64,000 bases of DNA from Escherichia coli (GTDB lineage: Bacteria; Pseudomonadota; Gammaproteobacteria; Enterobacterales; Enterobacteriaceae), in the NCBI RefSeq assembly GCF_029227855.1, contig NZ_CP074356.1; one strand, given 5' to 3'. Of this stretch, positions 1,297 through 52,901 are shown in pieces; positions within the stretch are counted from its first letter, which is position 1; each line of letters begins with the position of its first letter. The translations under genes and the position numbers were made by a program. The notes beneath the pieces are model-generated. The model worked only from the letters and a program-made list of their open reading frames with translations. It did no database searches and was not told where the DNA came from.

Positions 1297-1680
<384 letters not shown>

Positions 1681-1734
1681 ATTCTTCTCCCGAATAAATA
1701 TCCTCCGGCATAGCCGGAGGTTTTTCAAATGCGC

Positions 1735-2445
1735 CTATAAGGCTCTCTTACCAGCCGCGCCCTAACAGGCGCACACGATCTGACATTTGCATCCAACTTC
1801 GTTACTTACGGCCCGTAAACGGGCTGCCCGGATAGGGAATCGATAACTGCTCTCCCATTTTATCCTCTTCAAGCTGGTGCTTTATGTAATCCTGTATCTT
1901 CGCCGTGTTCTTACCCACCGTATCGACGTAGTACCCTCTGCACCAGAACTCCCTGTTCCTGTATTTGAATTTCAAATCACCAAACTGCTCGTAAAGCATC
2001 AGACTGCTTTTCCCTTTCAGATATCCCATAAAGCCGGATACGCTCATTTTGGGCGGGATCTCCACAAGCATATGGATATGATCTGCACAGCATTCAGCTT
2101 CCAGAATCCGTACACTTTTCCACTCACACAGCTTTCTCAAAATACTGCCTATTGCTCTACGCTTCTCTCTGTAGAACACCTGTCTTCGGTATTTTGGCGC
2201 AAAAACTATGTGATATTTACAGTTCCATCGGGTGTGCGCTAAGCTCTTTTCGTTCCCCATTGGGACCCCCTTTTGATTTCTTGTTTGACACTTGCAGTTG
2301 CCAGACCGCAAGGTGTTTTAACAAATCAAAAGGGGTTTTAATAACTGGCTTAAAGCTGAAAGCTTTCCGGAACCCCCAGCCTAGCTGGGGGTTTTCTGTG
2401 CACAAAAAAAACAGGGCTTGCGCCCTGTTTCTTTAATACAGATGT
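1735..2445 (-). mobile_element. IS200-family insertion sequence (about 0.7 kb) inserted between csgA and csgC; boundaries approximate
   Basis: Contains an IS200 TnpA ORF; its upstream leader has an A-run/palindrome/T-run (aaaaaaaacagggcttgcgccctgtttcttt, about 2405-2437) and a second stem-loop overlapping the RBS/ATG (about 2255-2290), as expected for the IS200 left end; the csgA-csgC spacing is about 770 bp versus about 60 bp recalled for K-12. Confidence 0.75.
1802..2260 (-). CDS. tnpA: IS200/IS605-family Y1 (HUH) transposase TnpA
   Basis: Starts MGNEKSLAHTRWNCKYHIVFAPKYRR, contains the HxH motif (ADHIHMLVEIPP) and C-terminal YxxxQ-type region; 152 aa. Confidence 0.9.
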   Translation of the reverse strand: MGNEKSLAHTRWNCKYHIVFAPKYRRQVFYREKRRAIGSILRKLCEWKSVRILEAECCADHIHMLVEIPPKMSVSGFMGYLKGKSSLMLYEQFGDLKFKYRNREFWCRGYYVDTVGKNTAKIQDYIKHQLEEDKMGEQLSIPYPGSPFTGRK

Positions 2446-2448
2446 GAA

Positions 2449-2904
2449 TTAGTACTGATGAGCGGTCGCGTTGTTACCAAAGCCAACCTGAGTGACGTTA
2501 ACGCTGGAGTTAGATGCAGTCTGGTCAACAGCAGCACCGTTACCGCCACCGAACTGTTTAACAGTCATAGTAGAATCTTTACCATTCCACTGATCAAGAG
2601 TAGCGCTGTTGCCGAAACCACGCTGAGTCAGATCGATTGAGCTGTCATCAGAACCTTGGCCAACATCTGCGCCGTTACCGCCGCCGTGCTGGGTAATGGT
2701 CAGATCAGAGTTACGGGCGTCAGCTTGCAGAGCAAGTGCAGAGTTACCGCCACCGTACTGGTAAATGTTCAGCTCTGAATTTGGGCCGCTATTATTACCG
2801 CCACCACCGTGGTTACCGCCGCCGCCGTACTGAGGAACAACACCTGCCAGAGCGCTACCGGAGAATACGATTGCTGCAATTGCTGCTACTTTTAAAAGTT
2901 TCAT
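2449..2904 (-). CDS. csgA: Major curlin subunit CsgA
   Basis: 151 aa, signal peptide, Gly/Asn/Gln-rich imperfect repeats (SxxxxxQxGxGNxA type). Confidence 0.95.
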   Translation of the reverse strand: MKLLKVAAIAAIVFSGSALAGVVPQYGGGGNHGGGGNNSGPNSELNIYQYGGGNSALALQADARNSDLTITQHGGGNGADVGQGSDDSSIDLTQRGFGNSATLDQWNGKDSTMTVKQFGGGNGAAVDQTASNSSVNVTQVGFGNNATAHQY

Positions 2905-2944: not shown

Positions 2945-3400
2945 TTAACGTTGTGTCACGCGAATTGCCATTTGCGACTGTCTCTGCACTACAATTGCCG
3001 TTTTTTGAGTACCATACTGTGTAATATTTGCTTTATTACCAGAACCTTTCTGGATAATCATCGCAGTATTACCATAAGCACCTTGCGAAATACTGGCATC
3101 GTTGGCACTGCCCGCCTGATCAATATATGCAAGGTTATAATCTCCTGTCTGATCAATCTTTGCCCGGTTGCTACTACCTTCTTGCGCAACAACCGCCAAA
3201 AGTTTTGAGCCTCCCTGCCGTAACTGAGCACTATTATTAGTCCCAGCTTGACCAATTATGGCTGCCTGATTAAATGAAGACTTACTCAATTCATTTACCG
3301 CGAAGTTATATTCTGAATTAGCTAAATCATAACCTGCTGCGGCTGCAATCCCAGGCGCACCCAGTATTGTTAACATCATAAATAACAATTTGTTTTTCAT
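2945..3400 (-). CDS. csgB: Minor curlin subunit / nucleator CsgB
   Basis: ORF 2945..3427; start at MKNKLLFMMLTILG (151 aa); curlin repeat architecture; upstream of csgA. Confidence 0.93.
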   Translation of the reverse strand: MKNKLLFMMLTILGAPGIAAAAGYDLANSEYNFAVNELSKSSFNQAAIIGQAGTNNSAQLRQGGSKLLAVVAQEGSSNRAKIDQTGDYNLAYIDQAGSANDASISQGAYGNTAMIIQKGSGNKANITQYGTQKTAIVVQRQSQMAIRVTQR

Positions 3401-4155
3401 GTTGTCACCCTGGACCTGGTCGTACATTTAAGAAATTAAATCATTTCAACTTGGTTGTTAACGCAACATGTATTTTGTTAACGCTGCGTTACGATGGAAA
3501 GTATGTCTGCGGAAATATTTTTAATAACTCACCCGCGCGTTGTATTTTTCTTTTTTTGTTCATACCAAAGTATTAAAACCCACGTAAATACGCTGTTATC
3601 TACGCAAAAAAAAATATTTTGTTTTCTTTTAAATCTCCGTTTTCCGCAATCAAAAATCACCAGACAGCCATTCTTCTTGCCCGTCGCTGATTGCTGCGAT
3701 ATGTCTTGCGCACAAGCCGTGACAAACCTCGTCTTTTTGCAGTAAAAAATTGTCCACGGAGGTGTGAAGAAAAAACAACAACGTTTTACATGACGAAAGG
3801 ACTACACCGAAATATTTTTTATATGCATTATTAGTAAGTTAGCACCATTTGTATGATTTTTTAAAATTGTGCAATAAAAACCAAATGTACAACTTTTCTA
3901 TCATTTCTAACTTAACAAAACCTTAAGATTAACATTTTAATATAACGAGTTACATTTAGTTACATGTTTAACACTTGATTTAAGATTTGTAATGGCTAGA
4001 TTGAAATCAGATGTAATCCATTAGTTTTATATTTTACCCATTTAGGGCTGATTTATTACTACACACAGCAGTGCAACATCTGTCAGTACTTCTGGTGCTT
4101 CTATTTTAGAGGCAGCTGTCAGGTGTGCGATCAATAAAAAAAGCGGGGTTTCATC
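3401..4155. promoter_or_regulatory. Divergent csgBAC / csgDEFG intergenic control region (about 755 bp, AT-rich)
   Basis: Long AT-rich spacer between divergent csgB and csgD; known from E. coli to hold sigma-S promoters, multiple transcription-factor sites and the long csgD 5' UTR targeted by sRNAs. Individual sites not mapped here. Confidence 0.7.
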
Positions 4156-4806
<651 letters not shown>

Positions 4807-9700: not shown

Positions 9701-9788
9701 GGTGAGGTGTCCGAGTGGCTGAAGGAGCACGCCTGGAAAGTGTGTATACGGCAACGTATCGGGGGTTCGAATCCCCCCCTCACCGCCA
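9701..9788 (+). tRNA. serX: tRNA-Ser (anticodon GGA)
   Basis: 88-nt sequence GGTGAGGTGTCCGAGTGGCTGAAGGAGCACGCCTGGAAAGTGTGTATACGGCAACGTATCGGGGGTTCGAATCCCCCCCTCACCGCCA with long variable arm and CCA end. Confidence 0.93.
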
Positions 9789-18083: not shown

Positions 18084-19007
18084 TTAACTGTATGCATGTA
18101 GCGTACGTTGGCAAAGTGCCGAACGTACGCAATCCTCTTTACCGAATCGGACGATCCCGACCATTTCATCTTCTTCGAAACGTTCCAGCGCGTCACTTAA
18201 TCCGGAGCGCACGCCGCGAGGCAAATCGCATTGCGTGATATCACCGTTGACGATAACCGTCACGTTCTCCCCGAGGCGGGTTAAAAACATTTTCATTTGC
18301 GCGGCAGTCACATTCTGCGCCTCGTCAAGAATGACGACTGCATTTTCAAAGGTACGTCCACGCATATAGGCGAACGGCGCAATTTCCACCTTCCCTATTT
18401 CCGGTCGCAGGCAGTACTGCATAAAGGAAGCCCCTAAGCGCCGGACCAGCACGTCGTAGACCGGACGAAAATAGGGAGCAAACTTTTCTGCGATATCTCC
18501 AGGTAAGAAGCCAAGATCTTCATCGGCTTGCAGAACTGGACGGGTGACGATAATCCTGTCGACATCCTTATGTATCAGGGCCTCTGCCGCTTTTGCTGCG
18601 CTGATCCAGGTTTTTCCGCACCCGGCTTCGCCCGTGGCGAATATCAGCTGCTTACTCTCAATAGCCTTCAGATAGTGCAATTGCGCTTCATTTCGCGCGA
18701 GGATGGGCGAGGTATCGCGACTGTCGCGGGCCATACCAATGGCTTCTACGCCGCTCATCTGCACAAGCGAGGTGACCGATTCTTCTTCACGCTGCTTATG
18801 GCTGCGCGAATCCCGTCTCAGCACACGTTTTGCCTCGCGACGAGCTTTGATCACTGCTTTTTGTCTTCCCATGGAGAGCACCTTGAGTTGTTTGTATTCA
18901 TCACACGCGCCGTTGGCAGCGCGATTATGCGCACGAACATCAGAGGGTTGGCTTCCTTGTAAGCCATAGTTTGCTTTTGGATAAAATGCCGAAAAACGGC
19001 TACGCAC
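18084..19007 (-). CDS. phoH: PhoH, phosphate-starvation-inducible ATPase (start codon uncertain; see findings)
   Basis: Walker A GEAGCGKT; longest in-frame ORF starts at GTG 19007 (307 aa); internal ATG gives MGRQKAVIKARR (262-aa form). Confidence 0.85.
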   Translation of the reverse strand: MRSRFSAFYPKANYGLQGSQPSDVRAHNRAANGACDEYKQLKVLSMGRQKAVIKARREAKRVLRRDSRSHKQREEESVTSLVQMSGVEAIGMARDSRDTSPILARNEAQLHYLKAIESKQLIFATGEAGCGKTWISAAKAAEALIHKDVDRIIVTRPVLQADEDLGFLPGDIAEKFAPYFRPVYDVLVRRLGASFMQYCLRPEIGKVEIAPFAYMRGRTFENAVVILDEAQNVTAAQMKMFLTRLGENVTVIVNGDITQCDLPRGVRSGLSDALERFEEDEMVGIVRFGKEDCVRSALCQRTLHAYS

Positions 19008-52230: not shown

Positions 52231-52403
52231 GCTCAGTGCGTATTTGCAGCGCGACGTTATCAAAGGTGATCATCGTCGATTTACAAAAAATACACTTTGC
52301 CCCTAAAGGATTTCGCTCCGTCACATCGAATGCCGATGTGCGGTACTGTGAACCATGACAACATGGACAGCGGAAATGGAGATGTTGAGTAATAACGGCA
52401 ACC

Positions 52404-52616
52404 TTAGAGCGTAACAACGTTCGCTGCCGCGGGACCACGTTGCCCCTGCTCAATAGAAAATTCAACTTTCTGATTTTCGTTCAGCGTGCGGAATTCATTG
52501 CTCTGGATGGCGGTGAAATGGACGAAAACGTCTTTGCTGCCATCATCAGGAGTGATAAAGCCAAAACCTTTATCTGCGTTAAACCATTTTACTAAACCAG
52601 TCATTTTATTAGACAT
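52404..52616 (-). CDS. cspG: Cold-shock protein CspG
   Basis: 70 aa; [21 protein letters not shown] cold-shock domain. Confidence 0.93.
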
Positions 52617-52901
52617 ATTTTACTTCCTTCATTTTGGGCCTTTCGGCAAACAGGGCTTTAATACAGAAACTACTTAGTGTTCAGGAGAGAGACTCAAAAG
52701 AAGGGGATAATGCCTGATAATGAGAACTGCTTTATTAAACTACTTTGTATGCTGTCTGTCTTTCAAACCGACGCAGCTATTAACGCATGATAATTGAGAT
52801 TAAGCAAATTTTATTTTAGCCGTCCGGCGGTCTTAAATATCGCTGGCTTTATTTTATTAACCCCGTATAGTGCAGCGCAGTATTTTCAGTAAGGAATTTG
52901 T

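Follow-up and report, generated by a model that had tools for sequence, protein, structure and literature searches.

A 64,000-nt stretch of Escherichia coli DNA (GCF_029227855.1, contig NZ_CP074356.1; hereafter the window) carries, we are largely confident, a recent and precise insertion of IS200C that lies directly after the csgA terminator, occupies a target typical of its family and probably lowers the expression of csgC. By alignment and family matches, positions 1693-2403 are an intact copy of this known insertion sequence, which belongs to the IS200 group of the IS200/IS605 family. The curli genes on either side are intact, and the order csgB-csgA-csgC, with csgDEFG divergent, is syntenic with the annotated regions of K-12, N1131 and JNEC-KY178. 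The features of the locus are collected in Table 1.

An intact IS200C copy between csgA and csgC

We set the boundaries of the element by aligning the window with the empty sites of K-12 MG1655, E01 and JNEC-KY178. The insert covers 1693-2403, or 711 bp, with a boundary ambiguity of up to two T, and comparison of filled and empty sites revealed a precise insertion with no target duplication. In csg sense, the empty site reads ...GCCCTGTTTTTTTT/CGGGAGAAGAATATG, where the slash marks the point of insertion, and the filled site reads ...TTTTTTTT, followed by the IS from GTGCACAGAAAACCCCCAGC... to ...CCGGAGGATATTTATT, and then by CGGGAGAAGAATATG. JNEC-KY178, K-12 and E01 all have the empty form CTCCCG/AAAAAAAACAGGGC. 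The IS begins directly 3' of the T8 tract of the csgA terminator, at a point 12 nt before the csgC ATG, and tnpA is oriented as csgA and csgC are. Independent confirmation of the right and left ends came from Yersinia pestis, where two IS1541 copies (L120/L121) follow each other head to tail and the sequence reads ...GGAGGATATTTATT/GTGCCCAG..., with the junction itself being ...ATATTTATT/GTGC...

Table 1. Features of the csg locus and of the IS200C copy in the window.
Feature	Position	Strand	Remarks
csgC, 110 aa, intact	1348..1680	-	NCBIfam NF007507, 171 bits (cut-off 75)
csgC ribosome-binding region CGGGAGAAGAAT	1681..1692	-	kept directly 3' of IS right end
IS200C, complete, 711 bp	1693..2403	-	left end 2403, right end 1693; empty-site alignment
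Right-end hairpin CCTCCGGCTATGCCGGAGG (1702-1720), then tail ATATTTATT (1693-1701)	1693..1720	-	dG -15.9 kcal/mol
tnpA, Y1 HUH transposase, 152 aa, intact	1802..2260	-	459-nt ORF; PF01797, NF033573
SD-sequestering stem-loop	about 2266..2335	-	fold; Rfam RF01405
Left-end perfect palindrome AACCCCCAGCTAGGCTGGGGGTT	2371..2393	-	dG -18.7 kcal/mol; RF01405 positions 1-23
csgA native intrinsic terminator AAAGAAACAGGGC-GCAA-GCCCTGTTT, overlapping T8 (2404-2411)	2404..2434	-	dG -18.6 kcal/mol
csgA, 151 aa, intact	2449..2904	-	NCBIfam NF007470, 239 bits (cut-off 160)
csgB	2945-3400	-	
csgDEFG	from 4156		divergent

A preliminary description of this DNA had placed the element at 1735-2445. The length was right, but the empty-site alignment shows that the span was shifted by 42 bp, so that it wrongly took in the hairpin and T8 of the native csgA terminator (2404-2434) and left out the right-end hairpin (1702-1720) and tail (1693-1701). 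The alignment with K-12 csgA-csgC to which it pointed for the boundaries is what yields the interval 1693-2403 without target duplication. The same description had correctly recognized a complete IS200 TnpA gene in the orientation of the csg genes (ORF 1802-2260), which scores 130.6 bits against Pfam PF01797 (residues 11-129) and 147.7 bits against the NCBIfam equivalog NF033573, 'IS200/IS605 family transposase', with a cut-off of 55. It was right, too, about a left-end terminator palindrome (2371-2393) and a stem-loop sequestering the ribosome-binding site; the Rfam family RF01405 (STnc490, the IS200 left end and 5'UTR) matches this region over its full length (model positions 1-124, window 2270-2393) with 146.1 bits, a gathering score of 56 and an E-value of 7e-31.

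Solved relatives of TnpA include 2ec2, 2a6m (IS608) and 2xm3 (ISDra2). The DHIH of TnpA aligns with the DHIH of 2ec2, and its RGYYV tyrosine region with RSYFV; on this alignment TnpA carries an HUH motif and a putative catalytic tyrosine. The DNA of the element is identical to that of the copy in AR_0137 (0 differences in 711), and because that copy is annotated with WP_000526135.1, TnpA should be identical to this protein. Within the 711 bp, tnpA is the sole ORF with a family match, and the element is without tnpB. Terminal inverted repeats are absent, as the start of the left end, GTGCACAG, and the finish of the right end, ATATTTATT, are not complementary, and there are subterminal hairpins at both ends (2371-2393 on the left and 1702-1720 on the right). 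The element thus displays every testable defining feature of the IS200 group.

Two other assignments were considered and rejected. Membership of TnpA among the RAYT proteins fails on score (32.2 bits against a REP_Tyr_transpos cut-off of 80) and on context, the flanks of the element being a terminator and the csgC ribosome-binding site, not REPs. A group IIC intron fails because the only ORF encodes a Y1 transposase, the likeness being confined to target choice, and Rfam scans of the window found no group II intron RNA family.

Folding of the left end gave a 10-bp palindrome hairpin and a long stem that pairs the Shine-Dalgarno sequence (z-score -7). The window contains a single copy of the 19-nt palindrome, which is absent from all of 100 shuffles and is presumed to be the hairpin that TnpA binds. 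In IS200, the left-end palindrome is a known bidirectional terminator, which in Salmonella is reported to end approximately 85% of impinging transcripts, a figure that belongs to another copy and context (PMC4513863, PMC5435999). The Shine-Dalgarno stem of Salmonella IS200 spans nts 69-138, and the other strand of the same region gives rise to the antisense RNA art200 (STnc490) (PMC4513863). At the other end of IS200C, both a terminator scan and folding indicated that the right-end hairpin is terminator-like on both strands, and the right end as a whole, consisting of GAAAAA, the hairpin and ATATTTATT, is terminator-like as well. Both hairpins of IS200C have GAAAA(A) on their 5' side.

The element itself is no different from its closest known counterparts. 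IS200 of Salmonella enterica, IS1541 of Y. pestis and IS200C of E. coli have in common a length of ~0.7 kb with a single tnpA, the lack of terminal inverted repeats and of target duplication, a right-end hairpin, and a left-end palindrome-terminator with a Shine-Dalgarno stem matching RF01405 at full length. Copies of IS1541 in Y. pestis also have the same left flank of hairpin and T tract. What is unusual here is the location inside the csgBAC unit.

Distribution and recurrence of the insertion

We surveyed 5426 complete E. coli genomes, 5402 of which match the flanks of the insertion. The csgA-csgC site is filled in seven of the 5426 (0.13%), namely MEW, N1131, AR_0137, 005008, AR_0114, L6-21 and EC16, with the remaining 5419 counted as empty. 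All seven carry the insertion at the same position (offset by one T in AR_0114) and in the same orientation, with a RefSeq annotation of IS200C, and csgC is intact in every carrier. A 0.7-kb segment native to the csgA-csgC spacer is rejected by these counts, with K-12 itself among the empty genomes. The preliminary description had treated the segment as foreign to the spacer and the strain as non-K-12, and both readings hold: only 7/5426 genomes carry the segment, and the K-12 site is empty and its flanks are only 95.3% identical to those in the window.

JNEC-KY178 is collinear with the window over all 64 kb, where we counted 8 mismatches and 1 gap. Structurally, the two differ only by the 711-bp IS. 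Because this near-identical strain is empty at the very same nucleotide, the insertion is, by this comparison, recent. One could suppose instead that the spacer originally contained the segment and that most strains have since lost it through precise excision, as IS200/IS605 elements do excise precisely and a single pair of filled and empty sites cannot be polarised. This idea is effectively refuted by the 5419/5426 empty sites, which include all examined close relatives of each carrier, and by the mismatch between element and flank histories, in that elements within identical flanks have diverged by 3%, and the flanks around identical elements by 2.8%.

The details of that mismatch point to repeated insertion rather than to common descent of all filled sites. 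Between N1131 and EC16, the flanks show 0 differences in 2800 nt and the IS copies differ at 23 positions. Between the window and AR_0137/005008, the IS copies are identical and the flanks differ at 78/2800 positions, with the nearest flanking SNPs only 30 and 19 nt from the junctions. The flanks of AR_0137 are nearly identical to those of K-12, and K-12 is empty. Finally, the junction in AR_0114 is T7-IS-T instead of T8-IS, as if the element had entered one nucleotide earlier. From these comparisons, we count at least three, and probably five, separate insertions at the csgA site, and part of the pattern could stem from gene conversion among IS copies. We found no direct description of IS200 in csg in the literature we searched.

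Such a series of independent events at the same nucleotide in diverged backgrounds might mean that the uncoupling or silencing of csgC is positively selected, for example through altered curli fibres. We regard this as very unlikely. The other IS200-group copies that we examined lie at equivalent terminators near unrelated genes, and recurrence at the csgA site is therefore expected from targeting alone. In addition, the insertion is confined to 0.13% of complete genomes with no lineage sweep visible, and csgC has stayed intact in all carriers.

Host terminators as targets of the IS200 group

The preliminary description gave no reason for the position of the element. The csgA site is a typical target of the IS200 group, that is, a GC-rich hairpin followed by a T-rich pentanucleotide (~TTNTT). 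In all six other E. coli copies of IS200C that we examined, the left flank is a hairpin followed by a T tract. Four of the six come immediately after a gene of the same orientation (mdh, mdoH, thrC and a 3-hydroxybenzoate monooxygenase gene), and the remaining two lie between yeaY and fadD and downstream of ymgL. We also scanned one genome per species for the left-end palindrome, which yielded 120 loci, and assembled from these loci and the E. coli copies a set of 93 distinct, bona fide left-end junctions with a flank of at least 80 nt. Hosts include Y. pestis, Vibrio, Brenneria, Edwardsiella, Mailhella/Desulfovibrio, Oxalobacter, Sutterella and Bacillota MAGs.

Multi-copy families make up most of these 93 junctions and come from about six genomes or genera (Y. 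pestis, Vibrio, Mailhella/Desulfovibrio, a Bacillota MAG, a Peptococcaceae MAG and Oxalobacter), with others contributing the rest. At 74/93 junctions (80%), the IS is preceded by a perfect, GC-rich hairpin that has 6 bp or more and ends 2-12 nt upstream of the element. T-rich positions taken from the same DNA as controls have such a hairpin in 4.6% of cases, which corresponds to a 17-fold enrichment at the junctions (binomial p = 2e-80). The mean dG of the 45 nt upstream was -19.6 kcal/mol at junctions vs -6.4 kcal/mol at controls, and of the other 19 junctions most show an imperfect hairpin of around -20 kcal/mol. The flank ends in five bases that conform to ~TTNTT, position -2 being T in 98% of sites and position -5 in 95%, and in about 97% of sites, in very different hosts, the IS starts exactly at the end of the T tract.

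Some megablast matches seemed to run from the IS into csg-like flanks (query 134-879 or 111-851), which had suggested that the IS carried the csgA terminator with it to other places. This transduction idea was rejected, as the loci concerned show unrelated terminators with similar T tracts.

We found no direct statement or explicit mechanistic description of terminator targeting by IS200 or IS1541 in the literature we searched, and older papers may contain one. A further example of the arrangement is the IS1541 copy between pheL and pheA in Yersinia (PMC3082878), and a 2025-26 preprint mention of terminator enrichment upstream of IS200/IS605 elements is statistical only. Insertions inside coding regions are on record as well, with hisD984 published for IS200 (PMC4513863) and an insertion of IS1541 in the caf1 region cited in PMC2806898. 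Because intragenic insertions of both elements are known, the data suggest that a host hairpin is not obligatory for insertion.

The association with terminators could therefore be a matter of survivorship, with IS200 entering 3' of any TTNTT and only the harmless insertions behind terminators persisting. Intergenic positions after a terminator are neutral, the preprint takes the enrichment of terminators in front of IS elements to favour their persistence (10.1101/2025.07.22.666184), and coding-region insertions are known under selection (PMC4513863, PMC2806898), all of which would fit such an account. We nevertheless think it unlikely. Against it stands the nucleotide-exact start at the end of the T tract, seen in about 97% of sites in hosts so different; only 4.6% of T-rich control positions have such hairpins; and the many other neutral intergenic TTNTT sites should then be occupied too. 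Because of this nucleotide precision and the enrichment over T-rich controls, we favour a mechanistic contribution to the hairpin association over selection alone.

What such a mechanism might look like can be drawn from better-studied relatives. IS608 of Helicobacter pylori and ISDra2 of Deinococcus radiodurans belong by sequence to the same Y1 HUH fold family (E 4e-19 and 2e-16 to the solved structures), have subterminal hairpins at both ends and insert 3' of a short sequence without duplication, with the top strand on the lagging-strand template. IS200C, in contrast, has no tnpB, and its target is a T-rich pentanucleotide, unlike TTAC or TTGAT, that almost always follows a host hairpin; the proposed GAAAA guide 5' of both its hairpins is assigned by analogy. 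Target recognition in IS608 and ISDra2 falls to a guide sequence that lies 5' of the hairpin foot (PMC7290912). By the same logic, TnpA of IS200C would integrate a single-stranded circle 3' of the T-rich target. The GAAAA in front of the left-end hairpin would probably recognise this target; on the left, GAAAA(A) could base-pair with the T-rich target, and on the right with the TTATT end. The csgA terminator, with its resemblance to the element's own right end (GAAAAA-hairpin-ATATTTATT), may help in capture. In the Y. pestis tandem, a right end did itself serve as the target. We looked for covariation between the GAAAA guide and the target, and variation among the sampled elements was too small.

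The GC skew is -0.028 on the + strand of the window, in all four quarters, and csgBAC lies on the + strand of K-12 at 1.10 Mb, on a replichore that we take from established knowledge of the K-12 map. Because of this skew and this map position, the top strand of the IS at the csg site is leading-strand sequence, i.e. it lies on the lagging-strand template, as in IS608 and ISDra2. Taking these elements together, we put forward the tentative proposal, which we hold as a possibility a little short of probable, that IS200-group transposases use host intrinsic terminators as structure-specific landing pads on the lagging-strand template. The terminator, with its A-rich 5' flank, GC hairpin and TTNTT, would then mimic the right end of the element.

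Two other systems offer partial parallels. The homing sites of class C (IIC) group II introns are terminator stem-loops with a TTGT/T behind them (PMC7923331); these introns choose a similar target, a harmless landing site with little impinging transcription, but their machinery, a ribozyme and a reverse transcriptase, is unrelated. Insertion sequences that target REP/BIME sequences, and the RAYT/TnpA-REP proteins, are likewise directed to or associated with extragenic hairpins, and TnpA-REP is a sister clade of the Y1 transposases (PMC3333891). The difference is that the target here is a terminator and not a REP.

Predicted consequences for csgC and for the IS200 group

Upstream of the insertion, the csgA terminator has the canonical shape of an intrinsic terminator when written out to the T tract (AAAGAAACAGGGC-GCAA-GCCCTGTTTTTTTT). 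It is common to all strains, identical in the empty sites and left intact by the IS. We established it by folding; a simple terminator scan missed it, probably with the extension of the stem using up the T tract. The insertion also leaves csgB, csgA, the csgC Shine-Dalgarno sequence and the csgC ORF unchanged, and folding predicts no difference in local structure around the csgC start between the empty and the filled site.

What has changed is the distance and the number of hairpins in between. csgC is now 711 bp further from PcsgBA, and a transcript from this promoter would meet three terminator-like hairpins before csgC (the native csgA terminator, the left-end palindrome of the IS and its right-end hairpin) vs one before the insertion. 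Because the csgA terminator precedes csgC in the native state, csgC would already depend there on terminator read-through or on another source. Given the two further terminator-like hairpins, we infer that csgC expression, already low, should fall further, several-fold, and we expect a mild phenotype. The lost expression may be replaced in part by weak read-through from the tnpA promoter.

The preliminary description had expected the terminator of the IS to block or alter read-through from csgBA into csgC. That csgC expression and curli quality control would be affected, as it predicted, is plausible from the layout of the locus, but the novelty of the block was overstated, because the native csgA terminator, a hairpin with T8 and a dG of -18.6 kcal/mol that already intervenes, had been overlooked. 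This terminator also bears on an older question. CsgC is very scarce and acts sub-stoichiometrically, and a 2015 review left the restriction of csgC transcription unexplained (PMC4389571); the conserved csgA terminator is an obvious candidate for the answer.

The same facts leave some room for an insertion that is neutral for csgC, a silent passenger, with an own promoter or tnpA read-through keeping expression at the same low level. We consider this doubtful, though less so than the survivorship account of terminator association. CsgC is needed only in sub-stoichiometric amounts and is natively very scarce (PMC4389571), a strong-looking terminator stands before csgC in all strains, the Shine-Dalgarno sequence and ORF are intact with an unchanged local fold, and the same insertion persists in several unrelated lineages. 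An own, as yet unmapped promoter of csgC or tnpA read-through might indeed be an alternative source. Set against this, no promoter-like site turned up from the right end of the IS to csgC or in the last part of the IS. A simple consensus scan, which is a weak test, found no convincing promoter facing csgC between tnpA and csgC, and a candidate picked out by eye, TTGAAA...GATATT, was rejected for its 20-nt spacer, which is too long. Moreover, the tnpA promoter is described as intrinsically weak, the right end has a terminator-like hairpin, and IS200 was discovered as a polar insertion (PMC4513863). We therefore retain lowered csgC expression as the preferred reading.

The element is a known one, its position, though rare, has been annotated before, and the insertion is an ordinary strain polymorphism. 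The locus itself matters little: the curli genes are intact, and at most the insertion turns down csgC, a gene with weak expression to begin with and only subtle phenotypes when lost. The strain of the window and JNEC-KY178 form a natural near-isogenic pair, with 8 SNPs in 64 kb plus the 711-bp IS, that could be used to test how csgC is transcribed.

The wider meaning lies with the family. If host terminators do act as landing pads, this would explain the precise position of nearly all copies from Enterobacterales to Bacillota, as well as the IS1541 tandem of Y. pestis and the recurrent insertions at csgA. Insertions at attenuators inside operons, such as those at csgA/csgC, mdoH/yceK and pheL/pheA, would then leave the distal gene almost completely insulated where a leaky terminator had stood before. 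The rule that insertion occurs at the end of a terminator T tract could aid the annotation of IS boundaries and the prediction of insertion hotspots, and could flag operon-internal attenuators that are vulnerable to polar insertions.

Structured RNAs and tRNA genes

Several Rfam matches and two tRNA-Ser genes lie in the window (see the table). The full-length ES056 match lies a short distance 5' of csgD, whose start codon is at 4156, and the Ysr251 match overlaps the 3' end of phoH (ORF 18084-19007, minus strand) on the opposite strand. The cspA thermoregulator match probably corresponds to the cspG leader, as judged by synteny with JNEC-KY178, a near-identical strain with an empty csgA-csgC site.

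Location of RNA genes, interrupted genes and sites with a nearby downstream start
Feature	Location	Strand	Detail
RF02752 (ES056 sRNA)	window 4009-4100	+	full length, 119.7 bits
tRNA-Ser	window 9701-9788	+	anticodon GGA
RF02855 (Ysr251, Yersinia antisense sRNA)	window 18089-18282	+	192.8 bits
naRNA4 (Rfam)	window 41589-41667	+	62.9 bits, slightly over gathering score
cspA thermoregulator (Rfam)	window 52350-52772	-	157.6 bits
tRNA-Ser	window 63317-63404	+	anticodon TGA
pgaA interrupted by IS3-family element	L136 34268-38027		E. coli N1131
clsC, truncated	L004 1-787		E. coli MEW
next-gene SD region after IS200C	window 1681-1692		SD/start 12-17 nt after right end
mdoH-IS-yceK	L011		SD/start 12-17 nt after right end
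3-hydroxybenzoate monooxygenase gene-IS-dusC	L013		SD/start 12-17 nt after right end

Other insertion elements in the carriers

Two further strains carrying IS200C between csgA and csgC have a disrupted gene elsewhere. pgaA, interrupted in N1131, is intact in JNEC-KY178, with which the window is collinear. In MEW, an isolate from an ivory gull, the truncated clsC, a neighbour of ymdB, borders an IS100 (IS21-like) transposase gene.

Junctions and strand placement of IS200C

The csgA-IS junction in E. coli AR_0114 (L007) reads T7/IS...TTATT/T-CGGGAG, slashes marking the element's ends, whereas the other carriers have T8/IS...TTATT/CGGGAG. The AR_0114 junction looks as if the IS had entered the T tract one nucleotide sooner, or as if the sequence held two homopolymer errors. 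The N1131 copy has one extra T at its right end. At yeaY-IS-fadD in E. coli 14EC020 (L014), IS200C lies at the opposite face of an apparent bidirectional terminator. Should the genes there be oriented as in K-12, this copy would sit on the template for leading-strand synthesis and would seem to depart from the rule that the top strand of IS200-group elements lies on the lagging-strand template.

Targets of IS200C and IS1541

A head-to-tail pair of IS1541, the Yersinia pestis relative of IS200C, is found in Y. pestis NCTC5923 (L120/L121; n=2 copies; NZ_UAVH01000012.1, ~55.7 kb). Copy 2 begins directly after the right-end hairpin and ATATTTATT tail of copy 1, so that IS1541 here has its own right end as a target resembling a terminator. 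Of the seven E. coli sites, three have the SD and start codon of the next gene 12-17 nt past the right end of IS200C; thus IS200C repeatedly splits gene pairs spaced only by a terminator and then an RBS.
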